Sequence record: MK962753.1 | Length of the DNA: 64,000 nucleotides | Reading direction: 5' to 3' (one strand) | Source of the DNA: Shigella phage JK32 | In this document: in pieces, positions 5,397 to 63,900 of the stretch | Layout: every line of letters starts with the position of its first letter | How positions within the stretch are numbered: position 1 is the first letter of the stretch | Translations under genes and position numbers: made by a program | The notes under the pieces: generated by a model | Database searches by the model: none | The model's input: only the letters and a program-made list of their open reading frames with translations | What the model was told of the DNA's origin: nothing

Positions 5397-5705
5397 ATGC
5401 ACACACTTATAAAGACCAAAACTCCCGCCGTGTCTGCACCAATTAGCTGCATTCATAGTACCCATATGACGGTACAAATGACAGTTGAAAGTGCTGTACA
5501 AGGGCAAAAAGTTGTCGCAGAGGCTGTTTTAGAAGGTTCTCTCGATGGCAAAGGTTGGTTCACTATTTCAGAATTGAAAGCTGATGGTAATGAATATGCA
5601 ACTGATGGTGGAGCGTTTGAAACATTATGGTCATTTATTCGGGCTAAGGTAAAATCATTATCCAATGGTTCTACCGTAAATGTGTATCTTGCGAAACGGG
5701 GGTAA
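5397..5705 (+). CDS. Hypothetical small late protein (first gene of module between 23 and 24)
   Basis: ORF with good RBS (AAGGGGAG) after a late promoter; no recognisable homologue. Confidence 0.5.
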   Translation: MHTLIKTKTPAVSAPISCIHSTHMTVQMTVESAVQGQKVVAEAVLEGSLDGKGWFTISELKADGNEYATDGGAFETLWSFIRAKVKSLSNGSTVNVYLAKRG

Positions 5706-5708
5706 TGC

Positions 5709-7427: not shown

Positions 7428-7439
7428 TGGGGGTGTATA

Positions 7440-8363: not shown

Positions 8364-8370
8364 TCCTATT

Positions 8371-8400
8371 GTCGGGGAGAAATCCCCGACAACGTTTTCT
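8371..8400 (+). terminator. Rho-independent terminator
   Basis: 8-bp stem GTCGGGGA/TCCCCGAC with GAAA loop then ..CGTTTTCT. Confidence 0.6.
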
Positions 8401-8420
8401 AATATCAACGAGGATATGAT

Positions 8421-10265: not shown

Positions 10266-10294
10266 TTAATTTCATCAACTATAGGGGAATTAAC

Positions 10295-10447
10295 ATGAGC
10301 AAGAAAAAAGATAGCTATGTTCAAATTACCAAGAAACAGTATGATGAATTAATGTTAGCGGTGGCCTATGCCATAATGCGATCTGATTTGGCGATCCAGC
10401 AAATCGAAAAGACAAATAAAAGTCTTGAGAATGTAGCAGCAAATTAA
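10295..10447 (+). CDS. Small hypothetical protein (50 aa)
   Basis: ATG with upstream GGGGA; below the ORF-track length cutoff; ends just before terminator hairpin. Confidence 0.3.
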   Translation: MSKKKDSYVQITKKQYDELMLAVAYAIMRSDLAIQQIEKTNKSLENVAAN

Positions 10448-15201: not shown

Positions 15202-17742
15202 TTAAAATAGTTGAGTACCATCAACCAGATAACCATTACGAGATTCCAATACATGAGTATTAGAATAGTGATGCAACGAGGCTGCAATAGTCTCGATCTC
15301 GTCCGGGTATTTGGTGTGTTCAAAGTCTTCTAACCAGTTAAGCCCTTCGCGGTTGCAACGGTCAATTTCATCAAGTACCCAATAGCCTTGATACTGGAAC
15401 GAAGTACGACGCCACGGAATCGGGTGTACATAGCGTTTTAATTTCGCGGTAGTAAACACTACACGAACTTTTTCACTATGTTTAACATGTCCTTCGTCGT
15501 CAGTAACTTCTGCATAATAGGTTGCTTGATGTGTCTCCTTGCTAATTTGTTCTTTAGGAATAGTATACACCTTACTATTCGCGCCAGGAATAACAGTATC
15601 TTTACCGCCCTGAATTTTATGCCACTTCCATTGAACTTCTTTTTCATCATCAACGTGTTCGGCATGAGCTTCTAAGGTAATATCCTGTTTCTGTCCTTCT
15701 TTAGCAACCACATCCACCGGATGTTTCAGAATATTGATATTTGAATGATGAGTCATTGTCACTAATGCAGGATTAGATTCAATGGTATTCTCACCAGCCG
15801 TAATTACCGCTGTGTAGCTGCCTACGTCAGACGGTTTTGCGTGATCAATAATCAACACATCTGAATTTGCACCAGGAATAATTTCACCGTCTTTTTTCCA
15901 TTGATATGATGGTTTAATACCAATAGATGTTTGTGCGGCAGCGTGTAACATAATTTTTTCATTATATTTCACATGCGCATCTTGTGGGTGAGTTGTTATT
16001 GCTAGGTCATTTGGAACAACCGTTACATCGTCGGAGATCAACACCCTAACCGCTTCTGACATTTTAGAAACTCGATGTTCACCGAATCCAGCCGATACAC
16101 GGCATGTATAAACGCCAGTAGATGTTAATTGTGCATGATCTTCGCCATATACATTTCGTTGTTCAATTCCTGCTGGGAAAAGATCCTCACCATCTTTAAA
16201 CCAACGGTAACGAACTGGCAAAGCATCATTAGACGTTGCCTTGATGGTAAGCGCCCATTGTCCACCGGAGCGAACTTTAACTGCTTTCGGTTGTACAGTG
16301 ATCTCTAACGTTGCCTTTGAGTTATCAACTGTCACCTGAACTGCATTAGACTCAGCCGAAATTCTGTGATTCTGGATACCCATAGAAACTTTACATTTAT
16401 ATTGACCTTCGTCTGCTTTAGTGATTGAGGAAAAATGCAAAGTTTTAGATGTTTTTCCAGGAATCAACTCATCATTTTTATACCACTGATAATCAAGTTT
16501 ATAATGTTCGTAGTCTGTCTCTGCTTCACAAATAAGAGTTTGTGAGGAACTAACTCGAACATTGGTTAACTGCTGTGGTTGTTGAGTGATTCGAATTGTT
16601 GGCGCAGCACCGACAAGAAGATCCGCTTCTTGTGATTCTGAAACCATATTATCACCGTAAGTCACTTTTGCTTTATATTTCGCCTGATTTAATTCCGCAG
16701 TTGCTGGTGCAATGTGGAGATCTTTATTAGTTGCGCCAACAATTGGTTTAAATTCATCTTCACCATTTTTCTTGATGTACCATTGAACTTTTACTGGTTC
16801 ATAGTTTGTTGCATAATCAACACTGAACAAACCTAAAGCACCAGCACCCACATTTATTGTGAGTGGTTGTTTAGTGAATCGAAAGAACGATCGACCTTCG
16901 ACTGTAACGTGACAATCTTTTGAATAGATCGTTGTTTCTGCTTGACGAACTTCAAGACGCCATACACCCTCGTCTTTTTTCGTGACGTGGGTTATAGTTA
17001 ATGCAGTGCCGTCTTGATCCAACACCATCCTATCGTTGTGAATCCACACATATGATAAAGGACGAGTTTTGTCATCGGTTGTCACCTGTGCTTGTAGTTC
17101 AAGTCTTCCATCTTCTGGAACTGTAACCGCTGATGGGTAATGTTCCTGAATATGAACTTTAGGAGCATCTTTATTTTGTTCCACTACTACAGGACTGATC
17201 CAATAGTGAGAACGTGCATCATCGGTAACAAATACCTTACAAGTATAGTTGCCAAAATCCTCATAACCAACTCGATCTACATGCACGTTTTTTTGACGGA
17301 TTTTATCTGGATTTAACTGAATGTGGTTTTTATACCAAATAGTATCAAATTGCTTGTTATCTTCGATGAACGGAGTAACAAAAATATCCAATTCTTCGCC
17401 TAAACGCTTATAAATGTAGGTCGGAGATTGATCCTGTGGTGCAAGGAAGGTGCGACGTTCAACAAGAATAGGCTTAATATCAACCGATTCAAGCGGATTA
17501 TCTTTCAGCTTAACTTTCGCTGTATACGTGCCGAATTGATCTTGAGTCATTTCAGCAATATACAGAGATTGATCTGGTTCTGCAACCTGATCTGATGGTA
17601 CGCTTTGACCGTTTAGCTTCCATTCTACGATATAGTCTTTAAAATCTGCGGTACTTACTACGAGCTTAAGAACAAGTTCATGTCCTACAGACGCGTAGAC
17701 CGGACCCATAGTTTGATGTAAAATATTGATTTTATCAGACAT
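15202..17742 (-). CDS. Hoc-like giant paralogue (multiple Ig-like domains + Hoc capsid-binding domain)
   Basis: 846 aa; repeated ~90-aa Ig-like units with conserved W/Y/C pattern; C-terminus KRYVHPIPWRRTSFQYQGYWVLDEI...ESRNGY homologous to Hoc C-domain; RBS AAGAGGA. Confidence 0.8.
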   Translation of the reverse strand: MSDKINILHQTMGPVYASVGHELVLKLVVSTADFKDYIVEWKLNGQSVPSDQVAEPDQSLYIAEMTQDQFGTYTAKVKLKDNPLESVDIKPILVERRTFLAPQDQSPTYIYKRLGEELDIFVTPFIEDNKQFDTIWYKNHIQLNPDKIRQKNVHVDRVGYEDFGNYTCKVFVTDDARSHYWISPVVVEQNKDAPKVHIQEHYPSAVTVPEDGRLELQAQVTTDDKTRPLSYVWIHNDRMVLDQDGTALTITHVTKKDEGVWRLEVRQAETTIYSKDCHVTVEGRSFFRFTKQPLTINVGAGALGLFSVDYATNYEPVKVQWYIKKNGEDEFKPIVGATNKDLHIAPATAELNQAKYKAKVTYGDNMVSESQEADLLVGAAPTIRITQQPQQLTNVRVSSSQTLICEAETDYEHYKLDYQWYKNDELIPGKTSKTLHFSSITKADEGQYKCKVSMGIQNHRISAESNAVQVTVDNSKATLEITVQPKAVKVRSGGQWALTIKATSNDALPVRYRWFKDGEDLFPAGIEQRNVYGEDHAQLTSTGVYTCRVSAGFGEHRVSKMSEAVRVLISDDVTVVPNDLAITTHPQDAHVKYNEKIMLHAAAQTSIGIKPSYQWKKDGEIIPGANSDVLIIDHAKPSDVGSYTAVITAGENTIESNPALVTMTHHSNINILKHPVDVVAKEGQKQDITLEAHAEHVDDEKEVQWKWHKIQGGKDTVIPGANSKVYTIPKEQISKETHQATYYAEVTDDEGHVKHSEKVRVVFTTAKLKRYVHPIPWRRTSFQYQGYWVLDEIDRCNREGLNWLEDFEHTKYPDEIETIAASLHHYSNTHVLESRNGYLVDGTQLF

Positions 17743-18616: not shown

Positions 18617-20119
18617 ATGCAAGATATTAAAATTCACTTTCTGAACTACTCTCATGTTCAAATTGAATGTAGCGATTCAATTTTATTAGAAATGCGAGAT
18701 TATTTTAGTTTTGAAGTCGAGGGAGCGCGGTTTCAAAAAAGATTTAAGTATGGTGGATGGGATGGGCGTATTCGTCTTTTAGATTACAATGGAAAGCTGC
18801 CAATCGGCCTAACTAAAACCGTGGGAATCTTCGCTAAAAATATGGGCTATAGCGTATGGGTAGACCCTCGCTTATTCGAAAAAGAACAAGTTACAGAAGA
18901 AGAAATTACAAAATGGTGTAATGATCTGGAATTATATTCCGGTGCTAACAGGATCACCCCGCATTGGTATCAATCAAAGGCTGTCTTTGAAGGTATTCAT
19001 CATAAACGCCGTATGTTAGTTTTGCCTACGTCCGCTGGTAAATCTGCGATTGCTTGTATGTTGTCTCGCTGGTACTTAGAGAACTACGAAGGGAAAGTGC
19101 TGATCATCGTTCCTACCACGTCGCTAGTGCTGCAAATGCGTGATGATTTTGTTGATTATCGCCAGTTTCCTTATGAAGCAATTCATACTATCATGAGCGG
19201 TACTAGTAAACACGTAGGTGATCGCCTGATCGTTGTTAGTACATGGCAATCTGCATGTAAACAGCCTCGTGAGTGGTTCCAACAATTTGGGATGGTAATT
19301 GTTGATGAATGTCACAAGGCCACTGCTAAAAACCTGCTAAACATCGTTACTGATATGGATCATTGCCAATTTAAGATCGGCATGACTGGTTCCCCTCGTG
19401 ACGGGAAAGCTAACATGATGCAGTATGTCGGGCTTTTCGGTGATATTTCTAAGATCGTGAGTATTGACCGCCTGATGGAAGAAGGTCAAGTGACAAAACT
19501 GAAAATTAACTGTCTTTTCCTTCGTTATACCGATGAGGAATGTAGCGCGGTTAAGGGGAGAGAATATGCGGAAGAGATCAAGTATATTACATCTAACCCA
19601 CGACGAAATAAGTTTGCTTGCAATTTGGCGCTAAAACTCGCTAAGAAGGGCGAAAACGTATTCCTTATGTTCCGCAATACTAAGCACGGAAAACTTATGT
19701 ATGACGCGTTACAGAAGGTACACGACAAGGTTTATTATATTGACGGTGGAGTTAAGACAGAAGAACGTGATGAATTTAAGAAAATGGCGGAGGGTGACAC
19801 CGGGATCATTTGTGTTGCGTCTTATGGTGTGTTCTCTACTGGTGTTTCCATCAAGAACTTGCACCATGTTATTTTCGGGCATCCAGTTAAAGAATCAACC
19901 ATTGTTAGACAGAGTATCGGTCGTGCATTGCGTAAACATGGTTCTAAGGATATTGCTACCGTTTGGGATCTTATCGATCATTTGGCGGTTAAGACAAAGA
20001 GCAAGAATGCTAAGAAACAGTTTAGCCACCTTAATTATGCTCTTAAACATGCGCTTTTGAGGATACAGCTTTACAATACCGATAAATTTGAGTATGCTAC
20101 CAAGACTATAGAAATCTAA
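18617..20119 (+). CDS. uvsW: UvsW recombination/repair helicase
   Basis: Aligns with recalled T4 UvsW (MQDIKIHF..., YFSFE, WDGRIRLLDYN, helicase motifs LPTSAGKS, DECH); start moved to ATG 18617. Confidence 0.92.
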   Translation: MQDIKIHFLNYSHVQIECSDSILLEMRDYFSFEVEGARFQKRFKYGGWDGRIRLLDYNGKLPIGLTKTVGIFAKNMGYSVWVDPRLFEKEQVTEEEITKWCNDLELYSGANRITPHWYQSKAVFEGIHHKRRMLVLPTSAGKSAIACMLSRWYLENYEGKVLIIVPTTSLVLQMRDDFVDYRQFPYEAIHTIMSGTSKHVGDRLIVVSTWQSACKQPREWFQQFGMVIVDECHKATAKNLLNIVTDMDHCQFKIGMTGSPRDGKANMMQYVGLFGDISKIVSIDRLMEEGQVTKLKINCLFLRYTDEECSAVKGREYAEEIKYITSNPRRNKFACNLALKLAKKGENVFLMFRNTKHGKLMYDALQKVHDKVYYIDGGVKTEERDEFKKMAEGDTGIICVASYGVFSTGVSIKNLHHVIFGHPVKESTIVRQSIGRALRKHGSKDIATVWDLIDHLAVKTKSKNAKKQFSHLNYALKHALLRIQLYNTDKFEYATKTIEI

Positions 20120-20130
20120 TGATACAAAAA

Positions 20131-20151
20131 TACCCCGCGCTATGCGGGGTA
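20131..20151 (+). terminator. GC-rich hairpin after uvsW (no clear U-tract)
   Basis: CCCCGC..GCGGGG stem; could be a terminator or an mRNA-stability structure. Confidence 0.35.
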
Positions 20152-20167
20152 TGGAGGAAAGAAAATC

Positions 20168-21253
20168 ATGGAACTTGTATTTGCTAAAGATATAGAATTT
20201 GTAAAGAAAACAAACAATAAGTCCCCTCAATATTATGAAGACCTTATTATCAAACGCTGTGCTGATCTGAAACTTAACTTTGATGGATTTATTCTTCCGT
20301 GGACTGGTGCTAAGACTAAATTAATTATATCAAATCCAGAAAACGGTTTGACACAGACAATAAATGTTAACAGAATGATAACTTCTACAAATCCAGGTGA
20401 CAAACTAAAACGAGCAAATGAATTGCACTACAAGTCAGAAGCAACAAAATATCTGTTAAACGCTGGTCTTGAATTTATTGGTTGGAATGGGGAATATAAT
20501 AAAAGTAATTCTCTGTCTACATGGTGCGACGCTAAATGTTTGATTCATGGAACTACTCATCGATATTTATTGCGAACTATAGTTCAGCATAAAGATATGG
20601 TAAAGACAAAATGTGTTGAATGTTATCGGATCAATGAATTGACGGAAAAATACGGTAGTGTTGATGCAGCAATAGAAGACCAAGAAAAGCGAGTTTTCGA
20701 TATTGTTTCTAAGTTGGGGTATGAAATAAAACATTTCACTGGAGACCGATTGAGAGACAGCGAAACTGATGTAGTTCTATATTGCCCTAAACATGATGTT
20801 GAGTTTAGTCGAAATGTTTGCGACCTGGTTTATAAGAAATTTGTATACTGTCCTACATGCATTTCTGTTAATAAAGGAATGAGAAGTGGAATAATCCATT
20901 CCTCCAATATAGGGGCATCTAAACCGACTTCAATCTATTTGCAAAATTTGAGCGATAAGTTTTGTAAGTTTGGCGTTAGCGTTCGCCCAAAAGTTAGGAT
21001 GTATGAGCAACAAAAAGTTTCTCAATATAACCACTCTCTTGTGTATGTTCACACTTTCGAAAAAGGCTGGATGGCTGCCGATGTGGAATATGGGATAAAA
21101 CTTAACTTTAAAGGGCGTGGTGCTAGCCCTACAGCCGTTCCTGATGGGTATACGGAAACGAGAGATATTAGTATGCTCGATAGTATAAAACAGTTTATAG
21201 AAAACTATATAAGAGAGAATCCAGAAAATCCTCTATACCTAACAGAAATTTAA
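20168..21253 (+). CDS. Zn-ribbon-repeat protein with conserved C-terminal domain ending PDGYTET (paralogue of 55545..56783)
   Basis: 361 aa; several C..C......C..C modules; C-terminal IYLQ...KFGVS...R..R..Y...PDGYTET shared with ORF 55545..56783. Confidence 0.6.
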   Translation: MELVFAKDIEFVKKTNNKSPQYYEDLIIKRCADLKLNFDGFILPWTGAKTKLIISNPENGLTQTINVNRMITSTNPGDKLKRANELHYKSEATKYLLNAGLEFIGWNGEYNKSNSLSTWCDAKCLIHGTTHRYLLRTIVQHKDMVKTKCVECYRINELTEKYGSVDAAIEDQEKRVFDIVSKLGYEIKHFTGDRLRDSETDVVLYCPKHDVEFSRNVCDLVYKKFVYCPTCISVNKGMRSGIIHSSNIGASKPTSIYLQNLSDKFCKFGVSVRPKVRMYEQQKVSQYNHSLVYVHTFEKGWMAADVEYGIKLNFKGRGASPTAVPDGYTETRDISMLDSIKQFIENYIRENPENPLYLTEI

Positions 21254-25717: not shown

Positions 25718-27393
25718 ATGACACATTAACATCATTTCGCGGAATGCGTAAAGACGCAGAAAATGATCCGCTTGATAAATTAGAAAAATTGGACAAACTA
25801 GATTCTATTGATAATCTTCAAGCTGCAAGCGAATTGGTAGCAGAGACAGTAGAACAAAAATCTAATGAAGTTATTGGAGCGGTGGAGGATAACACCGCCG
25901 CCAACGAATTAACGGCAGAAAACACACAATCAACTGCTGGTAATACTCAAAAAACCTATGAAGAATTGCAGAAGTTGAACAGCTTTTCTTCTCAGATGAA
26001 TGAGAAATTACGCGGTTTTGGTGTTATGATGGAACGTAGATTCAGCGTAGTTTCTAAGATCACCAGTGGTCTTGATGCAATTGAAAAGGCCATCAAGGAT
26101 GAGAAACAGCCGGAACAAACTATGCCATCACCGCAACCAGTTTTGCCGAGTGTACCGGAACAACAAAATAACGATAACTACCCTACGTTACCTAAGAAGC
26201 CTAAAGACGATAAGAAAAAGAAAGATAAGAACAGCGACCGTGACAATAATATGCAAATGCTAATAAAAGCGGTTCGCGGTGGATTTAAAGAGACTGTTGG
26301 TGTATCCAACAAGATATTCTCTATGCTGTTTAAAATGACCGTAACTGCATTGCTGGAAGTTGCCAAATGGGGAGCTATTCTTCTGGGGATCGTTGTTGCT
26401 ATTGATACTCTTATGATTCATTTTAGATACTGGAGCACGCAGTTTAACGAGAACTTTGGCGGGTTTATGAAGAAGGCCGGAGGATGGGGTACATCACTAA
26501 CAAGTATTTTAGCTAGTGTTGACGCGATTAAAGATTTTTGGGCTAAAAAACAATATGGTGATCTAGTTTGGGAAATTGTTAAAGGCATCGGTAAATCATT
26601 AAAAGATGCATTCTTCCAGTTAGATAAAATTGTCACTCAAGGCGTAGCGTCTGTATTGCGAACTATTCCTATGATGGGTGATGTTGCTGATACTATGGAA
26701 TATAACGCGCTAAAACAAGCTAAAGAGCATGGTGGATATAAACTTACACCAGAAGAAAATAAACTTTATCTTCGTAAGAAAAAAGAAGAAGATATGGAAA
26801 AAGGTAAACTTGCTAAAGCTAAATTAGCCGTTGAGAAATATAATCAGCCTTTGGGGATGCAAACAGAAATTTTGTTGTCGCCCGAAGAACAAAATGCTGT
26901 AGATAGATATGAAGAATTGAAGTCTGTGAGTGAGGAAAAATATTTGCGTAGTGGTGCTATTACTAGCGATGCAGAATCTGACTTAAAAAGAAATATTTCT
27001 ATGTTGGATTCGCTTAAGCCAAACTTACATGACAAACAGATTGCCGAACTTGATGCTAATGTAAATGAATATCGATCTTTGGTTAATGATGACTCATTGC
27101 TTTCTACTGATCGCAGAATGATTCAGGATCTGCTTAATCGTTATGACAAACTTCGTGCGGATAAAAACGCTAAGGTAACAGTAACCGCGCCTCCACCGGA
27201 TGAAACCGATACAGCAAAACAAGCAACGGCAATAGAACAGGGGCAATTACAGAATATCAGGAATGATAATTCTATTTCTAATACAGCCAACGTTGCAAAC
27301 ACGCAGATCTATAACAATAATAGAACGGTGCAGATAACACGGCCTCAAACTAGTACGCCTTCTCCCGGCCTATTACAGAAAGGAATAGTTTAA
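25714..27393 (+). CDS. 29: Baseplate hub subunit / tail length determinator gp29
   Basis: 559 aa; synteny and size; internal hydrophobic segment and helical regions. Confidence 0.8.
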   Translation: MNDTLTSFRGMRKDAENDPLDKLEKLDKLDSIDNLQAASELVAETVEQKSNEVIGAVEDNTAANELTAENTQSTAGNTQKTYEELQKLNSFSSQMNEKLRGFGVMMERRFSVVSKITSGLDAIEKAIKDEKQPEQTMPSPQPVLPSVPEQQNNDNYPTLPKKPKDDKKKKDKNSDRDNNMQMLIKAVRGGFKETVGVSNKIFSMLFKMTVTALLEVAKWGAILLGIVVAIDTLMIHFRYWSTQFNENFGGFMKKAGGWGTSLTSILASVDAIKDFWAKKQYGDLVWEIVKGIGKSLKDAFFQLDKIVTQGVASVLRTIPMMGDVADTMEYNALKQAKEHGGYKLTPEENKLYLRKKKEEDMEKGKLAKAKLAVEKYNQPLGMQTEILLSPEEQNAVDRYEELKSVSEEKYLRSGAITSDAESDLKRNISMLDSLKPNLHDKQIAELDANVNEYRSLVNDDSLLSTDRRMIQDLLNRYDKLRADKNAKVTVTAPPPDETDTAKQATAIEQGQLQNIRNDNSISNTANVANTQIYNNNRTVQITRPQTSTPSPGLLQKGIV

Positions 27394-28441: not shown

Positions 28442-29370
28442 TGTTTGATTTAAATGATTTCAACGAACAAGCCGCTAATCTAGACTTTCAGCGATCTAAT
28501 CTATTTTCGGTGGCGTTTGCCACCGTTCCTAGTAGCAAGACACAGCAAATTCTAGAAAATTTTGGTGGTGCTATTCATGATATTATACCTGGTAAATTAA
28601 ATGATTATTTTGGTATTACAGAGGGTGATTATACCGATGCCGTAACAAATTTGGCTATACATGGAGTGCGTAGAGCCGTTACATCGTCCGGTGTCAAAAA
28701 GTATCTTTTAGGTGCAATGTCATCCCGCGTAGTTCAATCTCTTCTGGGGCAATTTGAAGTTGGTACATATGTCATGGATTGGTTCAATATGGCATATAAG
28801 ACAAGCGGTTTGATGGTATATGCTGTTAAAGTTCCAGAAAACCGATTGAGTTATGAAATGGACAGAAACCACAATGCGCCTAACATTAGAATTACTGGAC
28901 GTGATTATGACCCGTTGATTCTTAGCTTTAGAATGGACGCTAGCGCGTCTAATTACAGGGCGATGCAGGATTGGGTTAACTCAGTAGAAGACCCCGTTAC
29001 AGGGCTTCGTGCGCTTCCTGTTGACGTTGAAGCAGATATTCAGGTCAACTTACATAACCGAATGGGAGTTCCTCACACGATCATGATGTTTAATGGTTGT
29101 GTTCCTGTTGGTGTGAGTTCCCCTGAATTAAGCTATGAAAATAACAACGAAATCACAACATTCGATGTTACTTTTGCGTATAGGACTATGCAAACTGGTG
29201 CTGTAGGAGAGCAAGCCGCGCGAGAATGGATTGAGGATAAGGCAATAAACCTGATTCAAAATACTATTGGTGATGGTACATCTGGATCGTTGACCGCTGC
29301 TGGTAGTGCGTTATCTCGCCTACAGGGTGTTGGTGGTAGGATAGTTAATTCTATTACTAGGTTGTTTTAA
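28441..29370 (+). CDS. 54: Baseplate tail tube initiator gp54
   Basis: Strong match to recalled T4 gp54 (FQR.N.FS..FAT.PS, NMAY..SGLM.Y.VK.PENRLSYE, YRAMQDWVNSV.DPVTGLRALP). Confidence 0.92.
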   Translation: MFDLNDFNEQAANLDFQRSNLFSVAFATVPSSKTQQILENFGGAIHDIIPGKLNDYFGITEGDYTDAVTNLAIHGVRRAVTSSGVKKYLLGAMSSRVVQSLLGQFEVGTYVMDWFNMAYKTSGLMVYAVKVPENRLSYEMDRNHNAPNIRITGRDYDPLILSFRMDASASNYRAMQDWVNSVEDPVTGLRALPVDVEADIQVNLHNRMGVPHTIMMFNGCVPVGVSSPELSYENNNEITTFDVTFAYRTMQTGAVGEQAAREWIEDKAINLIQNTIGDGTSGSLTAAGSALSRLQGVGGRIVNSITRLF

Positions 29371-29374
29371 TGTT

Positions 29375-29397
29375 AAAAGGGGCATTGCGCCCCTTTT
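29375..29397. terminator. Bidirectional rho-independent terminator between gene 54 (+) and lipoprotein gene (-)
   Basis: AAAAGGGGC-ATTGC-GCCCCTTTT: perfect stem flanked by A4/T4 on both sides. Confidence 0.75.
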
Positions 29398-29399
29398 AA

Positions 29400-29912
29400 T
29401 TAATTTAGTATATCTTCACACTGTTTACGCAGTTTATACCGGTATTCTTTAGAACTCAGCAATTGAACTTTTTCATAATCTCCAGACTCATATGCACTTG
29501 ACAGGTCGTCTTGATATGCTGCCTCTACCCCGATTCGACAAATGTCATATTTTCGTGCTTTCTTCAAGTCCAATTGTTCTCGCTCAAACTCTTTTCTTCT
29601 TTTCTCTAAATCTTCCTGATAGCTCTTATTTCTGCGATCTATCTTATCTTGAATCTCTGCGATTCTTTGTTGTGCTTCTTGTGGTAGTCCTATACGCGCT
29701 GCTGCCTCATCTTTTTTCTGTAGCATATCAATCACGCAATGTTCAGGGTCTTGATATACAAATTGCTTGACTTGCGAATGATTGTACCATTGAACACAAT
29801 ATTCTTCAACTTGCTGTATTGATGCTGTTGCGACTCGATAATCTTTTAACCCAGCGCACCCATTAAGCATAGCCACTAAAGCCGCAAGACCAATCAGTTT
29901 AATAATTTTCAT
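29400..29912 (-). CDS. Predicted lipoprotein with coiled-coil region
   Basis: N-terminal signal peptide ending in lipobox LNGC; K/E/R-rich helical middle; ATGA-coupled to upstream ART gene. Confidence 0.65.
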   Translation of the reverse strand: MKIIKLIGLAALVAMLNGCAGLKDYRVATASIQQVEEYCVQWYNHSQVKQFVYQDPEHCVIDMLQKKDEAAARIGLPQEAQQRIAEIQDKIDRRNKSYQEDLEKRRKEFEREQLDLKKARKYDICRIGVEAAYQDDLSSAYESGDYEKVQLLSSKEYRYKLRKQCEDILN

Positions 29913-55524: not shown

Positions 55525-55562
55525 GTACATTATACACTATTGCGTTACGCTGTCAACTCTTT
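55525..55562 (-). promoter_or_regulatory. Early promoter cassette, copy 14
   Basis: TTGACA-16 nt (contains GCGTAACGC palindrome)-TATAAT. Confidence 0.55.
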
Positions 55563-56783
55563 TTCAAAAGTTTTTACGATATACATGATAGTGCTCAATT
55601 CTGACGGCGCTACTGTTTCTGTGTAGCCATCCGGCATATCTTCTTTTGAGATATAGGAAGTTTTACCTTTCATCGCTTCCTTGATCTTGTTCTCTAATTC
55701 TAAGATCTTTTGACCATCTTGTAAAGTCAATTCATAAAAGATCTCGTGATCGAATTTAGATTTTGCTGATTGGTTTCTCATACGTTCTCTTGTTGTCAAA
55801 TTGGTTATTCCAAATTTAACACCTTCAAAAACGTCTCGTCTTAACAATTTTTGAATATATAATGTTCCTTGTTTTAAACGTTTGTAACCAGATTTCGTAC
55901 ACGAAGGACATCTCTTATGCGTTCTTGTTATGCTATGTATAGTTGGTGTCCAGACGCTACCACATCCACATAACATTGATATTCTTGTTGATGACCCGTT
56001 ATACTCATCGATAATTCCATTATATTTGATGTTTTCGGATTTACATATAGAGTATATTATTTTTTCATAGTGCTCTAATGGTTTAATTCTAAGACTTGAA
56101 TTATTTTTATATGCACATATTCTGCAATTATAACCTCTAAGAAAACTAGTTACATCAGTTGTATATGCGTGACCTCCGGTGCATTGTATAGTAAGTTTGG
56201 TATCATGTGTGATATCGTTATCAAGTAAAGTTATTATTTTGTAATTAATTGCTGAACATCTTTTCAAGATTTCTGATTTGTAATACGTTGATTTTTTATT
56301 CGTCTCTTGTATATTTTTTGTGTGACATTGTGGACATCTAGTTCCTTTCTTGGTGAAATGTGTTACTGTTGGTGTATATATGTGTCCATCTAAACATTCA
56401 ATCATTATTTTTGTTTTTAATTTATTCGAAGTCCATTCACCAACAACGCCACGATATTTCAACTTTTCGGATTTACATATTTCTATAATTTGTTTCTCTT
56501 GTTGTTCTTTTGTTATATATTCTCGCTTCTTGCTTTTTTGTTTTGCACATTTTGGGCATCTACTGCCTTGTTTTATACTAGATACGATAGGTTCCCAATA
56601 ATGACCGCACTTACAAAGTAAGGCCGTGCGAGTTCTATTCCCGATACATTCACCAATAAACCCCAAAAAGTTTATATCATCGGAAGAACACACATCGTGC
56701 ATAAATTTTTCATGTTCTAACATCTTTTTAATTTTGCTGGTGGATAGCATATTGACTATATCTTTAACGAAATATGTTTTCAT
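55545..56783 (-). CDS. Zn-ribbon-repeat protein with conserved C-terminal domain ending PDGYTET (paralogue of 20168..21253)
   Basis: Four tandem C.CGH.(W/Y).PT.........CP.C modules, then C-terminal LYIQKL...VKFGIT...R..R...PDGYTET domain; start at ATG 56783. Confidence 0.6.
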   Translation of the reverse strand: MKTYFVKDIVNMLSTSKIKKMLEHEKFMHDVCSSDDINFLGFIGECIGNRTRTALLCKCGHYWEPIVSSIKQGSRCPKCAKQKSKKREYITKEQQEKQIIEICKSEKLKYRGVVGEWTSNKLKTKIMIECLDGHIYTPTVTHFTKKGTRCPQCHTKNIQETNKKSTYYKSEILKRCSAINYKIITLLDNDITHDTKLTIQCTGGHAYTTDVTSFLRGYNCRICAYKNNSSLRIKPLEHYEKIIYSICKSENIKYNGIIDEYNGSSTRISMLCGCGSVWTPTIHSITRTHKRCPSCTKSGYKRLKQGTLYIQKLLRRDVFEGVKFGITNLTTRERMRNQSAKSKFDHEIFYELTLQDGQKILELENKIKEAMKGKTSYISKEDMPDGYTETVAPSELSTIMYIVKTFEKELTA

Positions 56784-56807
56784 TTTTATCCTCCGTTGTT
56801 TCGATGA

Positions 56808-56845
56808 GTGCATTATACATTATCTCGGATCGGTGTCAATACCTT
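56808..56845 (-). promoter_or_regulatory. Early promoter cassette, copy 15
   Basis: TTGACA-16 nt-TATAAT with conserved CGAAACAACGGAGGA leader. Confidence 0.55.
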
Positions 56846-56909: not shown

Positions 56910-57857
56910 TCACATAGCCAACAAGCTATCAAGGTCATCCAGATCAGAAGCGGAGGAACTACCGCCACCCAGATCCAGAGATGTCATCAGATCATCAGCG
57001 GAAGAACTCGACGCGGTGCTCATTGCGCTAGTTCCTGCATCGAATGCATTCATCTGAGCATCAAAATCATCAAGCTGGCTGTTAATCGCTGCCGCAGCAC
57101 CAGAAGCCGAAGCACCAGCTACCAGACTTACACCTTTAACTTTCTTAAATTTAGCATCCAGTTCCTCGAAAGATTTAAACTGGTCTTTTGCTACGATAAC
57201 ATCAATATCTACCATGTTTTCGAACAGATATTTCTGGAATGCTTCATCTTCGATGTTCGGAATCGCTGATTGCTGCATGAAACGTGAATCATCGTAGTTC
57301 AGGAATTTATCTACTTTCTTAGCTTTCAGAAGGAAGTTAGCGCCTTCGAACGGACATACGATGTTTACAGGTTTTTCGCCCAATTCCGTGTTTACGTTGC
57401 TCATTGCCAGAATCTTGTCATAAATTTTCTTACCGAAGCGGAATTTAAATACTTTACCTTCGTTTTCCGGCGCTTTCGGATCTTTCATGACCAGAATGTT
57501 TGCGAAGTAAGAAGATTTACGCTTAACATCTTGATATTCTTTATTGTTGGTGTTGTACAGGTCATTTTCGCTAATGTATTTGCACACAGGGCAAGAATCA
57601 AAATCACCGTGGGTGCTAGGGCAGTTTTCCCAATAATACTTACCATTTACTTTGAAAGAATGGTTTACAAGGTTGATGATCGGTAAACCGTCTTCGGTGC
57701 GTGCTGGAAGAAAACGAATCACCGCTTCACCGTTACCCGCCGCGTCAGTTTTAATCTTCCACTCTTTCGGATCTTCTTTGGAGAAACCGTTGCTACCTTT
57801 CAGTGCTGCCAGTTGAGCTTGCAGTTTGGAAGAATCTTGACGACGAAAAATGTTCAT
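56910..57857 (-). CDS. 32: Single-stranded DNA-binding protein gp32
   Basis: Resembles T4 gp32 (Zn-site [25 protein letters not shown], acidic Ser/Asp-rich C-terminus); start at ATG 57857 with RBS AAGAGG. Confidence 0.92.
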
Positions 57858-57923
57858 AATTATACCTCTTTTATACATTAACTATTAATTTGCTAGACTA
57901 TTATACAGATTTAAATTTACTTG

Positions 57924-58604
57924 TCAACTATTTGTTTCGGCTTTTAATTGAGATATTTCTTTACACTCTTTAACTACTTTAACAAATAATGCTCTTGCTT
58001 TTGCGGCGTCAATAACAAGTAGTTTCTTGTACGCCTTCATTTTAACACTATAAGTTTGCCAAATCAAGTCTTTGGCTACCTTGTCGTGTTCGTCGATTAT
58101 ATTTAGAAAGCTATCTAACAACATAAACGACTCAAACGATATAATCCGATTTTGCAGTAGTTTAAAGATACCGCTAGTTTCGGTTGCGGGATTGTATGTA
58201 ATTAGCTCTTTAAGAGTAACCCCGCGTTTCTCGGAGAAGTATACCAGACTTTTAATGTCATCGTCAAATCTTGTTGCTGCATCGGTTATCTTTCCTATGT
58301 ATTCCATATAAAAGCCGTATGCGTCAACATCAGTGATTTCACCTACCCATGCATCGGTATTGGCTACCAGATTGCTTAGGAATAGAAAGTATAATTCTCT
58401 TAGATTGTACTTTTCCGCTAATTTTGCGAAATAATACTTATCTCTGCGTTTATTGAATGCGGCATCAGACAACCGCATCCTCCAATTGTATTTTACGCAA
58501 TCATAACGCCCGTTCATATGAGCTTTCATCATGCAATATAACATATACACAGATTTAGCATTAATTCGCATATCTGGATCTGGAGGAAGACGGTTTCTGA
58601 TCAT
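57924..58604 (-). CDS. 59: Helicase loader gp59
   Basis: Resembles T4 gp59 (KSVY.LY.M.K.HMNG.YD..KYNW.MR.SDAA..KRRDKY.F.KL). Confidence 0.88.
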   Translation of the reverse strand: MIRNRLPPDPDMRINAKSVYMLYCMMKAHMNGRYDCVKYNWRMRLSDAAFNKRRDKYYFAKLAEKYNLRELYFLFLSNLVANTDAWVGEITDVDAYGFYMEYIGKITDAATRFDDDIKSLVYFSEKRGVTLKELITYNPATETSGIFKLLQNRIISFESFMLLDSFLNIIDEHDKVAKDLIWQTYSVKMKAYKKLLVIDAAKARALFVKVVKECKEISQLKAETNS

Positions 58605-58613
58605 ACATACCCC

Positions 58614-58883
58614 TTAAATATCGAGAGTGTTGGTCGGTTCGTCGATCACTCCCTTCCTGAGCGTTCTATTTACTATACATTCTTGTGTGATCTTGTCAAT
58701 AATGGACACCGGAATATACTTCTGATAGTGACCATATTCGATAGAGTTTTCCTCTACAAACTGAGTTGTCGCTTCAAGATAAGTCAATCCCTCTTCAACA
58801 ACCAGTTTTTCGATTGCAAGACCGTTTGCTGTTTTGTTCGCGGCTTTTACCGCATGTTCATTAAGCATTGAACACCCGATCAT
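58614..58883 (-). CDS. 33: Late-transcription accessory protein gp33
   Basis: Resembles T4 gp33 core (IEKLVVEEGLTYLEATTQFVEENSI); exact start ambiguous. Confidence 0.75.
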   Translation of the reverse strand: MIGCSMLNEHAVKAANKTANGLAIEKLVVEEGLTYLEATTQFVEENSIEYGHYQKYIPVSIIDKITQECIVNRTLRKGVIDEPTNTLDI

Positions 58884-59136
58884 AGAGTTCTACTGCTTCG
58901 TCGCGTTCTGCTTCGAAGGTTTCGCGCTGTTGTTGGTGATACAGTTTAAACAGAATGCCCCACATTTTACCGTCTACGCCTAATTCTTCTTTAGCACGCT
59001 GCTTGATCTCTTTGATCTTATCGCCGTATGCTTCTTGAATGGTTTTCTGATCGCTGGCTTCTTTAATCAGTTGTGCCAGGGTATTTCCGTGCACTGCTTC
59101 ATCAAATACTACTTTTTCTTTTTTCTGTTCAGTCAT
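58861..59136 (-). CDS. dsbA: dsDNA-binding protein DsbA
   Basis: 91 aa, position between 33 and rnh as in T4. Confidence 0.7.
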   Translation of the reverse strand: MTEQKKEKVVFDEAVHGNTLAQLIKEASDQKTIQEAYGDKIKEIKQRAKEELGVDGKMWGILFKLYHQQQRETFEAERDEAVELYDRVFNA

Positions 59137-59140
59137 AATA

Positions 59141-59737
59141 TTAACCCTCTTTAATCATTAATTGAAAACCACGTTCAGCTTTTGAGATTTCGCTAGGACT
59201 TAAATCATCGCTGACATATTCTAGCATCATTTCTCTGATAATGTCAAGTGCTTTTTCATCACCTGATTTTAACTCGAACTCAAGTTCATAGTGGGCATCG
59301 CCCATTCCTTCGTCTAAACGTCGATAATAGAAAGTGTCTTTGCACATTTCCACTATACCACAACCCATATCTAGAGTCAATGACTTGCGATGTGTCATTA
59401 TCTGCATTAGAGGAATGACATGTTCTGAGTTCACCCCTAGACTATCAACAAAATGGGCGAACTCATCCCATTTTGAAAACGTCACTTCCTCACGGTTGAA
59501 CAGTCCAGATTCACTATCTCCAATTTTGACCATGACTAATGTTCTGTAAACGTCAAGTCGTGCATAAATTCCTTTTCGACGTAGTGCATGGTCTTCGGTG
59601 TCATAATAAAACTCGTGTTTTAATATGTTATCTCTGTCTACGAGATTGTACCCGTCATACATTGCTACCCACACATCATGGATTGTTTCTACACCTTCCT
59701 GTGAGTGTGCATAGTATTTTAATTCAAGTTCTTTCAT
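59141..59737 (-). CDS. CYTH-domain (triphosphate tunnel metalloenzyme) protein
   Basis: N-terminal ExExK (ELELK), central YYDTED..LRRKG, C-terminal acidic ELEFELK strand, as in CYTH/CyaB-ThTPase family. Confidence 0.6.
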   Translation of the reverse strand: MKELELKYYAHSQEGVETIHDVWVAMYDGYNLVDRDNILKHEFYYDTEDHALRRKGIYARLDVYRTLVMVKIGDSESGLFNREEVTFSKWDEFAHFVDSLGVNSEHVIPLMQIMTHRKSLTLDMGCGIVEMCKDTFYYRRLDEGMGDAHYELEFELKSGDEKALDIIREMMLEYVSDDLSPSEISKAERGFQLMIKEG

Positions 59738-59747
59738 GTGTCAACCC

Positions 59748-60695
59748 TTAGAACTCACCAATTTTCTGCAACATTTTAACTAACGCATTTGTTACAAAAT
59801 AGTTATAAATCTTACCGCGTGGTGCTGGTTTAGATTTTTCCCATTCTAACAAAATTTCATATTCGATGTTATCGGGAATAAATTCAAAATCAATAAGTTC
59901 GCGGTTTTCGTCAAAACGTCGTGCTTCTTCCTCTGTCATCAAAGACTTTGGATCTTCGGCATTGAAAATTTGCTCTAACCATTTGGTTGCAATTGGTTTA
60001 GCTCGTTCCCCTTCCAGTCGTGAGATAATGAAATCACTACGGCACTTGATAGAAGCTACACCGTCTTTTGCGTCACCCTTAACACATTTTACCATAAGGT
60101 CTTTGTAAGGGCTACCATATTTGCATTTCTTCCATGCTTTCTGTACTGGCGCCCACTGTTTCACGTTTTTGTATTTGTGCAACTGTGTGTAGTCACCATC
60201 GCCGGAGTTGATTAGCACCTGGCGACCTTCTACAGAAAACTTTTTAGTTAACACAGCGATTATATCATCCGCTTCAACTTTGTCAACCTTAATAACGTGA
60301 TAAGGCATGTTCTCTTTAAACTCTTCGGTGATCTTATTGATCGCAGCAAAGATCATCTCCCAATCACGCGGATCTGCGTCTCGTTTTTCCTTACGGTTAC
60401 GCTTGTAATAAGGTGCGATATCACGTCGCCAGTAACCTTTGCTTGAATCAAAAGCAAGTACCGTGATTGGGTATTGCTCTTTGAATTTTGTCATATTATA
60501 ACGCATGGTGTCAAGAATAAGATGACGGATCATGCCTTCACTAATAGGATCTTCCGGTTTAAAGGTATGCGAGATAGTAGCAATCATAAGCTGCGACATA
60601 TCAATCAAATGCACACCTTCCGGTAGTTTATCTTCTGGATCATCGAAGAAATCATTAAGTGTAGCGGTAGTTTTTGTAAACGGGTTATACGTCAT
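59748..60695 (-). CDS. rnh: RNase H / 5'-3' flap exonuclease
   Basis: Resembles T4 RNase H (GYWRRD.A.YYK.NR, HKYPNVKQW.P, RGKIY.YFV). Confidence 0.9.
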   Translation of the reverse strand: MTYNPFTKTTATLNDFFDDPEDKLPEGVHLIDMSQLMIATISHTFKPEDPISEGMIRHLILDTMRYNMTKFKEQYPITVLAFDSSKGYWRRDIAPYYKRNRKEKRDADPRDWEMIFAAINKITEEFKENMPYHVIKVDKVEADDIIAVLTKKFSVEGRQVLINSGDGDYTQLHKYKNVKQWAPVQKAWKKCKYGSPYKDLMVKCVKGDAKDGVASIKCRSDFIISRLEGERAKPIATKWLEQIFNAEDPKSLMTEEEARRFDENRELIDFEFIPDNIEYEILLEWEKSKPAPRGKIYNYFVTNALVKMLQKIGEF

Positions 60696-60697
60696 AA

Positions 60698-60883
60698 TTA
60701 AGTTCTCTCCACTCTCACAACAACATATTCGCCAAACGAGTTAGATACTTCACGATCATACCCGTATTTCTCCATAACTCGCAGAATTGCATTGTTTAAT
60801 TCGGCACGGAAATAATTGTAATCCTTATCAGGGATTCTGTCAACTATCCATTTTGCACCGTCTGACAAATCAACTTTAACCAT
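60698..60883 (-). CDS. Hypothetical protein (61 aa)
   Basis: ORF immediately upstream of rnh, divergent from gene 34. Confidence 0.5.
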   Translation of the reverse strand: MVKVDLSDGAKWIVDRIPDKDYNYFRAELNNAILRVMEKYGYDREVSNSFGEYVVVRVERT

Positions 60884-60921
60884 AATATATCATCCTCTTT
60901 TGTTTCTATCAAGCCTCATTT

Positions 60922-60929
60922 TATAAATA
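60922..60929 (+). promoter_or_regulatory. T4-type late promoter (TATAAATA) for gene 34
   Basis: Exact TATAAATA about 28 nt upstream of gene 34 ATG; RBS AAGGAGA. Confidence 0.65.
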
Positions 60930-60957
60930 TGAACATACTATAAAAGGAGACCCAATA

Positions 60958-63900
60958 ATGGCAGATTTTTCTCAACATTTCAAGGCCACATTTGGCTTTG
61001 ACGCTGGTAATGAAAAGGTCGTCAATGTAGCATTGGCTGATAAGAATGTCAACACCGATGCGGTCAACGTTGAATTTTTCAATTACCATAATGGTATTAC
61101 TCAGTATGACACAACTCGCGGTTATGATCAATACGGAACTACAATCTATCAAAACCGTCCGTATTATGCAAAAGAAGATATCACAAAGCCAGCAGGTGAT
61201 TTTGACCCGACTAAATGGCAAGCACTGCGCACGGACCCACGTTGGGATTATATTGCAGCAACTTCCGGTGATACTCCTTTAAAGTCTGGTGATTATATCG
61301 CAGCAGATGGTCAATTTGCAAACTTGACTTTCTCTATGCCAAATAAACCAGCCGAGGGAGACACTATAACAGTAAAAGATATCGGTGGCAAGTGTGGTGT
61401 TAACGAATTATCGTTCTTGAGTTCAGGACATGAGTTTTACCATAACGGTAATGTGTATAACCGAAAATGGTATTGCACTACCCCGTATGCAATGAACTAT
61501 TTCATCTTTGTTCGTAATCGTTGGCATGTTTATCAGACAGGAACAGAGCCACGCGGTGTGTACGCACAACCAGCGATTGATGCTATTCAAATGCAGAATG
61601 GTGATCAGGTATTTCGTCGTAGTTCATTGGGTAATATTACCTTAGTGCTTCCTAAGTTTGCCAACAATGGCGACATGATCCAGACTACAGATCTTGACGG
61701 GTTAACCGCAACCAACCACGTTACGGTTAAAGTTCATGAGCACGCAGAAGAACAATCAATTGGCACGTTCGGTCTAAAAGAGATTATCGGTAAGCGTAGC
61801 GGTCATGGTGTATTCATCTTTGATAAGCCTGAAAACTTATGGCGTGTGTGGGATGGTGATCAGTCTGTTCGTCTTAAACCGATCATCGATGACACTCGCT
61901 TGCAACCTAATAGTTATGTTGCTGTATTTGGTGATCATGATGTTACTCTGACGCTACCGACCAATGTCGAGCCGGGTGATCGTATTCAAGTTTCTATGCA
62001 GTATATGCACGGAAACCAGAATTGCCGTATTATCACCGCCGCAGAGGATACAAAAATCCTTATGCAGAAAAACATGGTTCAGTTTCCTAAGCGTAGCGAG
62101 TACCCATTCAACGGGACCGAGACGTGGAAGGAAGTGTCTGAATTGTCGTTCAATGCAGCTAGTGATTATGTTCCTTATCTGGAGTTCTCTTATTCAGAAG
62201 GTGATGATGGTAAGAAACATTGGTTGGTAGCACATGCTCACCCAATCGTAGAACGGGTAGATCCGACTCGTAAAGCGCGTGTTGGTGTAATTGCACTGGC
62301 TACCCAGAATGAAACGAATAAAAACCATGAAGAGAATCCTAGCGACGAAGTTGCAGTAACGCCAAAAATGCTGGCTAATAAAACAGCCAACGAAACTCGA
62401 CGCGGTATTGCTCGTATTGCTACTCAGGCGGAAACGCATCAAGATACTGGTTCCAGCTTCCTGGATGATGTTATCGTTACACCTAAAAAGTTAAATGACT
62501 GTGTTGCTACCGAAGCCCGTCGTGGTGTGATGGAAATTGCAACCCAGCACGAAACCAATGAAGGTTTAGATGATACCCGCGCTATTACTCCTAAGAAATT
62601 AGAAGAACGTCGCGCATCCGAGGATCTCGCTGGTATTGCTGAAATTGTTCAGGCTGGCGGTAGTGCTGCCGATCGACGTGGCGAAGCTGGTACAGGAATC
62701 TATAACATCAATGACCATGCTAAAATTGTTACGCCACAAAACATCAACGAAGTCAAGGCGACCGAAACTTCCCGTGGTGTTGGCTATCTGGCAACTGACG
62801 CGGAAGTGCAAGGTGCTACAGAATCAACCCCGCAAGATGCTTTACTAATCACGACTCGCACGCTAACGAAACGTACTGCTACCGAATCGCGTACTGGTAT
62901 CGCTGAAATTGCAACTCAGGAAGAAACAAACTTAGGTCAAAGTGATAACCATATCATCACGCCTAAAAAGCTGCATACTCGCCGCGCAACGGAAACTTTA
63001 CACGGTTTAGCAGAAATTGCAACTCAGCCGGAATTTGACGCAGGTCGTGACGACGCTCGCATTTCTACCCCGTTGAAGATTAAAACCTTCTTTGAGAATG
63101 CACAGCGTTTGAAAGTAGATCCGACTCAGGGGCTTAACCTTACTGGTGATTTGTGGCAAGGTATCATGATCAGCGGTCTGGATGCAACCGAAGACACAAA
63201 AGGTGTCGCGAAAGTTGCAACTACTCAGCTTACGGACGCTGGTCAAGATGATACTACAATCATTACTCCTAAAAAGCTGCAAGGCAAAAAGGCCACCGAA
63301 GGTAAAGAAGGTATTATCCGAGTTGGTACTCAAGCCGAAACCGTGGCTGGTGCACTGGCTAATGTAGCAATTTCTCCGAAGAACTTCAAATATGTTGTTC
63401 AGACAGAGGATACATGGAAAGCAACCGAAGCGCGTCGTGGTTTCTTGAAAGTTGCTACTCAGGAAAACTGTTTTGTTGGTGATAATCTACAAGGTTCTAC
63501 TCAAGAGCTAGGAAACTACCAGCATGACGGAATTGCTGTTACCCCGAAAGGATTAAACTACGCACTTGCTAATTTCTTGCCTAAGATGGCAACCGCTCAG
63601 AATAGTTTGAAATTGGGTAACGTAGAGGCCGCTAAATGGGCGCGTAGAGACATTGACCAGACCATTGAGAGCAATTACACGTTTAATAAAAACGTTAACG
63701 TGAAGGGCGATTTAGAGTGCTTAAAATCTGGTTCCTTTGAAACGCTGTTTGTGACTAAGAACTCAACCGACGATCCGAGTAATGGTCATCTGGTGTTGGG
63801 TGAGCGTGGAGTTGATGGTCACACCGGAATTACTCTGCATGGCACAACCGCATCGGAAGGCATGGAAAACTCATGGTCTATTATCGTTGGTGGTACTGGA

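Follow-up and report, generated by a model that had tools for sequence, protein, structure and literature searches.

The CYTH gene between rnh and dsbA

We analysed a 64,000-nucleotide (nt) stretch of Shigella phage JK32 DNA (record MK962753.1; hereafter the window), focusing on a 198-amino-acid (aa) open reading frame (ORF) on the minus strand at 59141..59737, which starts with ATG and whose span includes the stop codon. An earlier note had described it as a CYTH-domain gene, encoding a triphosphate tunnel metalloenzyme (TTM), inserted between dsbA and rnh. The protein is deposited, letter for letter, as QEG05552.1 (Shigella phage JK32; identical to JK32_00241), under the label "hypothetical protein"; it is the orthologue of RB49p245, and the JK32 locus shares 95–98% identity with RB49-like phages (genus Krischvirus). 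Immediately upstream lies rnh (59748..60695, minus strand), encoding the T4-type RNase H/5'–3' exonuclease (PF09293, E = 3.5e-37; PF02739) and itself preceded by a 61-aa ORF (phrog_3594) on the same strand as the CYTH gene. Downstream lies dsbA (58861..59136, minus strand; PF11126, E = 5.4e-22), followed on the same strand by gp33 (PF16805), gp59 (PF08993/PF08994) and then gp32. The intergenic gaps are 10 nt on the upstream side and 4 nt on the side of dsbA, and a Shine–Dalgarno element AAGGG (59745..59749, minus strand), read directly, stands 7 nt ahead of the ATG and overlaps the rnh stop codon. In the T4 record, dsbA (149509–149778) and rnh (149787–150704) are directly adjacent, 8 nt apart with nothing in between, so the gene is indeed extra relative to T4.

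The ORF is a real gene and not a chance reading frame, since its product matches Pfam CYTH and phrog_14893 (E = 3e-121; entered in PHROGs as function unknown), it recurs in 58 genomes, and the pairwise ratio of nonsynonymous to synonymous substitution rates (dN/dS) is about 0.26 overall among ten intact copies, the window included. The match to Pfam CYTH (PF01928) scored 29.6 bits against a gathering cut-off of 23.2 (E = 7.3e-7) and aligned residues 1–190 with profile positions 1–178 of 179. A hidden Markov model (HMM) built from 146 cellular relatives scored the phage protein at 120 bits, and hhalign gave a probability of 99.96%. When a profile of 21 phage homologues was used, the sole PDB sequence match was Escherichia coli YgiF (5a60), with the whole tunnel domain aligned, while a single-sequence PDB search returned only noise, and nothing matched in NCBIfam or PADLOC. 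The protein has the eight-stranded antiparallel β-barrel (tunnel) fold of the CYTH/TTM superfamily: an AlphaFold2 model, built on the YgiF-profile alignment, reached a mean predicted local distance difference test score of 92.1 and contains eight β-strands. Matches in BFVD outside the Krischvirus-type clade had TM scores of 0.6 or lower.

The similarity has been recorded before. The RefSeq entry of RB49 notes its orthologue RB49p245 as "similar to ... P30871 ... ygiF", Nolan et al. (2006) reported a CYTH match for RB49ORF244c (E = 0.0026), and the record of phage G5211 cites the CDD family CYTH-like_Pase_CHAD. Six listed records name the product either "inorganic triphosphatase" or "adenylate cyclase", and the remainder call it hypothetical. 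Because the CYTH/YgiF similarity is already on record, the protein counts as a so far uncharacterised representative of a known family of enzymes.

The nearest known relative of the phage protein is E. coli YgiF, an inorganic triphosphatase of CYTH–CHAD architecture (PDB 5a60/5a61; CDD cd07756). Both share ExExK, the catalytic Arg, the equivalent of YgiF K69 (K71 in the phage protein), R82, R117, the two glutamates E153/E155 and a C-terminal SKAxRG helix. However, YgiF has 433 aa with a linker and a CHAD domain, whereas the 198-aa phage protein has neither: Pfam found no CHAD match in it, and it ends straight after the tunnel domain, at residue 198, which leaves no place for one. The two are only 22–25% identical, and nothing points to a recent acquisition from the host. 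Stand-alone tunnel domains of about 150–200 aa with ExExK and ExE are also known among the single-domain TTMs of bacteria and archaea (NeuTTM, CthTTM and SaTTM; BH2851, 2gfg), which use a two-metal hydrolase mechanism on inorganic tripolyphosphate (PPPi) and nucleoside triphosphates (NTPs). These proteins fall in other sequence clusters, however, and retain RxR, their 'W' position being occupied by a small residue; unlike them, the phage protein has C-terminal helices of the YgiF type. Other phage and viral CYTH proteins, namely jumbo-phage triphosphatases, Aeh1ORF004c, ORF99 of Vibrio phage VS1 and giant-virus capping triphosphatases, are precedents but are not detectably orthologous to the Krischvirus gene.

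Active site and enzyme class

All sequence motifs named in the earlier note were present, as E3-L-E5-L-K7, Y44-Y-D-T-E-D49, L52-R-R-K-G56 and E151-L-E-F-E-L-K157. The ExExK motif on strand β1 (codons 3–7; 59717..59731, minus strand) corresponds to YgiF E4/E6/K8, by which E3 and E5 would form part of metal site 2 and K7 would contact phosphate; it is invariant in 44/44 aligned phage homologues and in about 141 of the 146 cellular relatives. The ELEFELK motif on strand β8 (codons 151–157; 59267..59287, minus strand) contains the ExE pair, homologous to YgiF E160/E162, of which E153 is predicted to serve metal site 1 and E155 metal site 2; both glutamates occur in 45/45 phage and 145–146/146 cellular sequences. 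In the C-terminal helix, SKAERG (codons 185–190; 59168..59185, minus strand) aligns with SKAARG of YgiF, and K186 is kept in 146/146 and R189 in 132/146 relatives. Altogether E3, E5, K7, R60, K71, R82, E84, R117, D134, E153, E155, K186 and R189 are identical in 44–45/45 phage-clade sequences, and the same set is conserved in 132–146/146 of the more distant relatives. With a significant profile match above the Pfam cut-off and the acidic tunnel residues E3, E5, E153 and E155 invariant in 44–45/45 phage homologues, the CYTH/TTM identity proposed in the earlier note is upheld.

Martinez et al. (2015) assigned metal 1 of YgiF to Glu160 and metal 2 to Glu4, Glu6 and Glu162; the water that attacks is activated by metal 2, Arg56 acts in catalysis, and Glu4 is held in position by Lys69. 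Their counterparts in the phage protein are E153 for E160, E3/E5/E155 for E4/E6/E162, R60 for R56 and K71 for K69. In seven of eight predicted strands, conservation is higher at positions that face the tunnel than at those that face outwards (facing assigned by strand parity only), as would be expected of a working enzyme. The CYTH fold can also be non-enzymatic, as Mediator Med18/Med20 and the RESC proteins show, and the phage protein might accordingly bind or soak up a (poly)phosphate ligand, or serve as the partner of another protein; its β3 motif is non-canonical and its outer surface highly variable. Nevertheless, the catalytic Arg and every one of the metal-binding glutamates stay unchanged even in homologues with about 30% identity. 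Such constancy would be difficult to account for unless the protein catalyses a reaction or, at the least, binds a metal–triphosphate, and we regard a non-catalytic protein as very unlikely.

The earlier note had also raised the possibility that a phage copy makes or destroys a nucleotide second messenger or processes RNA 5' ends, and four GenBank records annotate the product as "adenylate cyclase". A CyaB-type class IV adenylate or nucleotidyl cyclase (AC-IV) could manipulate the host by making cAMP or another cyclic nucleotide, and CyaB and YpAC-IV resemble the phage protein in having a CYTH fold and in using two metals, in their case to convert a nucleotide triphosphate. However, Vogt et al. 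(2021) reported that true AC-IV enzymes carry HFxxxxExExK, said to be required, that the second Glu of the β8 ExE is strictly Ala (ExA) in them, and that their first β3 Arg is replaced by a small neutral residue. An HFxxxxExExK extension is impossible in the phage protein, because only M1-K2 precede E3, and the ExA signature was absent as well, with E155 in 45/45 phage homologues. On β3, three of four alignments place R60 at the position of the first Arg, the gatekeeper, and the fourth, a minority alignment to YgiF only, replaces this Arg, as in cyclases, but with Tyr58 rather than with a small residue. The nearest relative is, moreover, the specific tripolyphosphatase (PPPase) YgiF, and CYTH proteins are known to have been wrongly labelled "adenylate cyclase" in the past. 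Since the ExE pair is intact and the HF motif is missing, we read the protein as a two-metal triphosphohydrolase rather than a cyclase; cyclic nucleotide synthesis is disfavoured to the point of being highly improbable, which corrects the label on the four records.

The β3 motif itself, Y58-A-R60-L-D62 (codons 58–62; 59552..59566, minus strand), required a choice of register. A MAFFT alignment of 191 sequences, the HMM of cellular relatives and hhalign all placed R60 on YgiF R56 and AtTTM3 R52, pairing G56-I-Y58-A-R60-L-D62 with G-A-S-L-R-I-R and leaving the following β3–β4 hairpin two residues shorter. In the YgiF-only profile alignment the register was shifted by two residues, which put Tyr58 on the catalytic Arg. 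Because the three independent family-level alignments agree, against the YgiF-only one, we prefer R60 as the retained catalytic Arg; a replacement of YgiF Arg56 by Tyr58 was considered and rejected, and stays a minority possibility.

In the preferred register the second β3 Arg, present in 141/146 cellular relatives, is Asp62 throughout the phage clade, so that the YgiF-type RxR pair, which contacts the β and γ phosphates, is represented by R60-x-D62 only. YgiF has G-x-R-x-R where the phage protein has Y-x-R-x-D, and L36/N38 where the phage protein has K40/E42; these two residues face the tunnel from β2 and are specific to the phage clade, with L/Q/M at the first and N/D/A/S at the second position in cellular relatives. 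Vogt et al. (2021) gave the β3 motif as (W/Y or small)-x-R-x-R. Ordinary TTMs have a small residue at the position of Tyr58, and an aromatic one is confined to thiamine triphosphatases and plant TTM1/2. Compared with the W/Y-x-R-x-R of thiamine triphosphatases, the aromatic residue and the first Arg are there, while the second Arg is missing; the mammalian enzyme (3bhd, 5a64) is only 13–17% identical, belongs to a different similarity cluster and lacks the phage Asp at the second Arg, and nothing suggests thiamine triphosphate as the substrate. Tyr58, Asp62, Lys40 and Glu42 together imply that one tunnel end has been remodelled in the phage clade, and this remodelling suggests a different, possibly organic (nucleotide-like) triphosphate, so that the substrate may be other than plain tripolyphosphate. 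The Y-x-R-x-D/K40/E42 signature appears to be new, as does the sharply bounded mosaic core described below, and Y-x-R-x-D offers a concrete handle on substrate specificity within the CYTH family, in which sequence is a notoriously unreliable guide to function.

Distribution and a mosaic core

The CYTH gene occupied the same site in 58/58 Krischvirus records holding the locus, and was frameshifted in one of them. A tblastn search of 50,697 phage records with the window protein and two divergent homologues (P0044 and P0045) recovered the same 58 Krischvirus records only. Among 5.8 billion proteins we found 43 clusters, all phage-like, and an exhaustive profile search of 1.84 billion representatives gave only six at E ≤ 1e-10, followed by a tail of CYTH (about 200 aa) and CYTH–CHAD (about 500 aa) proteins. 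Three homologues come from uncultured T4-like phages. P0043 (locus L011) is 47% identical to the window protein and has rnh upstream and dsbA–gp33 downstream; P0044 (L015) is 34% identical, with dsbA–gp33 downstream and the upstream gene beyond the contig end; and P0045 (L017) is about 30% identical to the Krischvirus copies, with dsbA–gp33 downstream and a cut ORF upstream. The flanking proteins, rnh and dsbA in L011 and dsbA in L015, are still 80–83% identical. Since the CYTH proteins have fallen to 34–47%, the gene is an old resident of the lineage, and its evolution is several times faster than that of the genes beside it.

The next relative and nearest non-phage protein, P0046, is an archaeal CYTH protein of 201 aa. 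On its archaeal metagenome contig (L018, 3797–5606) the gene directly follows one with a PRK (phosphoribulokinase/uridine kinase) domain, with an RNA ligase gene and a NUDIX gene close by; the adjacency of PRK and CYTH is reminiscent of the kinase–CYTH fusion in plant TTM1/2.

The frameshifted copy belongs to vB_EcoM_G2494 (L003, 1501–2096), in which one nucleotide is deleted at CYTH codon 59, outside a homopolymer. This orthologue, which its record splits into two ORFs, also shows several substitutions of its own, and may be either a natural pseudogene or a product of poor sequence or sequencing error.

A comparison with phage Skers revealed a deeply diverged central segment of the gene, spanning codons 13–152 (59282..59701, minus strand). 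There the DNA is only 48–60% identical, whereas rnh, dsbA, 33 and 59 are 95–100% identical and the last 47 CYTH codons return to 90–98%. The first 12 and last 47 codons (59702–59737 and 59141–59281) are thus near-identical like the flanks, and the breakpoints inside the gene are recombination-like. With RB49 the central segment shares 73–88% DNA identity. Gene 32 (56910–57878, minus strand) is 67–95% identical in 60-nt windows to both RB49 and Skers, beside gp59, gp33 and dsbA at 95–100%, and is a second divergent allele in the cluster; within rnh, positions 59821–59940 (minus strand) are 70–80% identical in DNA to RB49 and Skers, against 92–100% for the rest of the gene.

Substitution rates were estimated from the window and ten Krischvirus loci, eleven sequences in all, which contain ten intact CYTH copies. 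The central segment had a mean dS of 0.37 and a mean dN of 0.18, giving a dN/dS of about 0.5 on the means (saturated pairs excluded); single pairs against the window reached a dS of 0.76, with dN/dS of 0.2–0.55. The gene ends had a dS of 0.13–0.22 and the four flanking genes 0.06–0.18, all with dN/dS ≤0.12. Because dS is raised together with dN, the variation probably reflects old alleles exchanged by recombination and not a simple burst of amino-acid change, and selection on the CYTH gene remains purifying. A tile comparison with RB49 further showed that many other segments of the window are equally or more divergent; the mosaicism, though conspicuous locally, is therefore no exception and gives weak evidence for host–phage conflict. 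We also considered a variable core shaped by an arms race; this reading was weakened by the dN/dS below 1 and by the commonness of such divergence from RB49 elsewhere in the window. Rfam contained no element matching 57500–62500 at E ≤ 1, and the conserved ends of the CYTH gene are therefore not explained by a known RNA element.

Expression, substrate and possible roles

The CYTH gene is co-oriented and tightly packed with early genes. A consensus scan of 58500–61300 found 22 σ70-like motifs against 8.6 expected, 18 of the 22 on the coding strand; these motifs are consensus matches only. One, TTGACA-17-TAAAAT (59716..59744, minus strand; 11/12 consensus matches), lies across the CYTH start, with its TTGACA between the Shine–Dalgarno element and the ATG, so that a transcript would start inside the gene. 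This TTGACA is kept in 13 of 14 related loci, including the distant L011 and L015, and reads TTGACG in L014. A second, TTGACA-18-(TGc)TAGAAT (59218..59247, minus strand; 11/12 matches plus TG), sits in the conserved 3' end of the CYTH gene and is aimed at dsbA–33–59; at a similar place L015 has a perfect TTGACA-17-TATAAT. A perfect 12/12 match lies inside rnh (60259..60286, minus strand). The motifs would fit early transcription of the whole cluster rnh–CYTH–dsbA–33–59–32.

Taken together, we consider it rather likely that the gene encodes a stand-alone YgiF-like TTM without CHAD that is an active Mg2+/Mn2+-dependent triphosphohydrolase, probably produced early, alongside the genes for replication and late transcription. 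On the model of its homologues YgiF and AtTTM3, a substrate that bears a triphosphate would thread into the eight-stranded β-barrel and be held by K7, R60, K71, R82, R117, K186 and R189. One metal would bridge the substrate to E153, and the second, bound by E3, E5 and E155, would activate a water for attack on a terminal phosphate, with R60 assisting the leaving group. The default substrate by homology would be PPPi, for which the activity of YgiF itself is known.

Several points weigh against this model. E. coli hydrolyses PPPi mainly via inorganic pyrophosphatase, with no PPPi detectable in cells, and because the host already performs this hydrolysis a plain PPPase would be of no obvious benefit to the phage; the host activity, with the absence of measurable PPPi, and the remodelled tunnel both count against tripolyphosphate as the biologically relevant substrate. 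The Asp at the second β3 Arg position departs from the cellular family, and the minority register, if right, could mean impaired hydrolysis. The tunnel geometry comes from strand parity and not from model coordinates. The frameshift in the natural isolate G2494 implies that the phage can do without the gene, at any rate under laboratory conditions. Finally, a literature search found no characterised phage CYTH enzyme, no functional genomics of RB49 and no biochemistry on members of the clade.

The remodelled tunnel raises a special case of the hydrolase model, in which the enzyme cleaves a specific nucleotide-type triphosphate for counter-defence or pool sanitising. Candidate substrates would be a triphosphate-bearing immune signal (dITP, as in Kongming), an alarmone, or a canonical dNTP linked to the cytosine modification of some Krischvirus phages. 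Tyr58 lies where thiamine triphosphatases stack the organic moiety of the substrate by Trp/Tyr, one phosphate-binding Arg has been lost while K40/E42 have been gained, and both the fast divergence relative to rnh and dsbA and the deep mosaic polymorphism of the central segment are in keeping with such a role. Iyer et al. (2021) described scattered CYTH triphosphatases in jumbo phages and suggested that these degrade unmodified NTPs, and phage SAP, of the same genus, is reported to have modified cytosines (PMC13390438, 2026); the genus lacks the usual 5-hydroxymethylcytosine synthase and glucosyltransferase genes. However, phage TB34, which has canonical cytosines, is 99.96% identical to SAP and both carry the gene. 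A link between the SAP modification and the CYTH gene is pure speculation. No PADLOC defence model matched and the literature offered no link, the divergence from RB49 is equalled or exceeded in many parts of the window and is no specific evidence of an arms race, and dN/dS is below 1. We therefore give counter-defence or pool sanitising only a minor chance. Equally slim is the chance that the remodelled tunnel entrance adapts a YgiF-like triphosphatase to a nucleotide-type triphosphate as an early counter-defence or nucleotide-pool editing factor, in which case conflict with host factors would account for its mosaic and rapidly changing surface.

The neighbourhood of rnh suggests another role, an RNA or nucleic-acid 5'-triphosphatase that removes the γ-phosphate from pppRNA ends. 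It could act on pppAC Okazaki primers ahead of RNase H, or on host or phage transcripts to steer them into 5'-end-dependent decay. The gene adjoins rnh and probably shares a transcript with it, and RNA primers are removed by the rnh product; the Cet1, mimivirus and vaccinia RNA triphosphatases use the same tunnel fold and two-metal chemistry; and RB49-like genomes have the RNA-end-healing genes pseT and rnlA and a second gene resembling polynucleotide kinase. Nevertheless, the protein gave no match to Pfam mRNA_triPase and did not closely resemble Cet1, Pct1 or the capping triphosphatases of viruses in structure, T4 manages its replication with no such enzyme encoded here, and in early clusters of the T4 type the adjacency of two genes says little about function, which together make this role unlikely.

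For the preferred triphosphohydrolase, the consequences depend on its substrate. If only tripolyphosphate were hydrolysed, this would be a minor accessory gene; its interest would rise considerably if the substrate were a nucleotide signal or a pool nucleotide. The enzyme is encoded in the early cluster throughout the genus, its active site is intact, and the RB49-like phages that carry it are used in therapy collections.

Elsewhere in the window, a 422-aa ORF (55545–56813, minus strand) between frd and gene 32 contains CapR-homology/treble-clef zinc-finger modules (PF21817 in three stretches; PF14311). It sits where RB49 annotates an 'endonuclease', is mostly without DNA match to RB49, and is probably a mobile nuclease-like gene. 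In a comparison restricted to RB49 82,000–149,500, the segments at about 5400–10400, 15300–17600, 20100–21100, 26550–27300 and 29250–29750 had no blastn match and resemble insertions or hyperplastic regions with respect to RB49, and the part of the window from 21 to 29 kb was only 65–80% identical. Gene 34, for the proximal subunit of the long tail fibre, is divergently oriented and runs off the window end; just upstream of it, at 60922–60929 (plus strand), stands the T4-type late promoter consensus TATAAATA.

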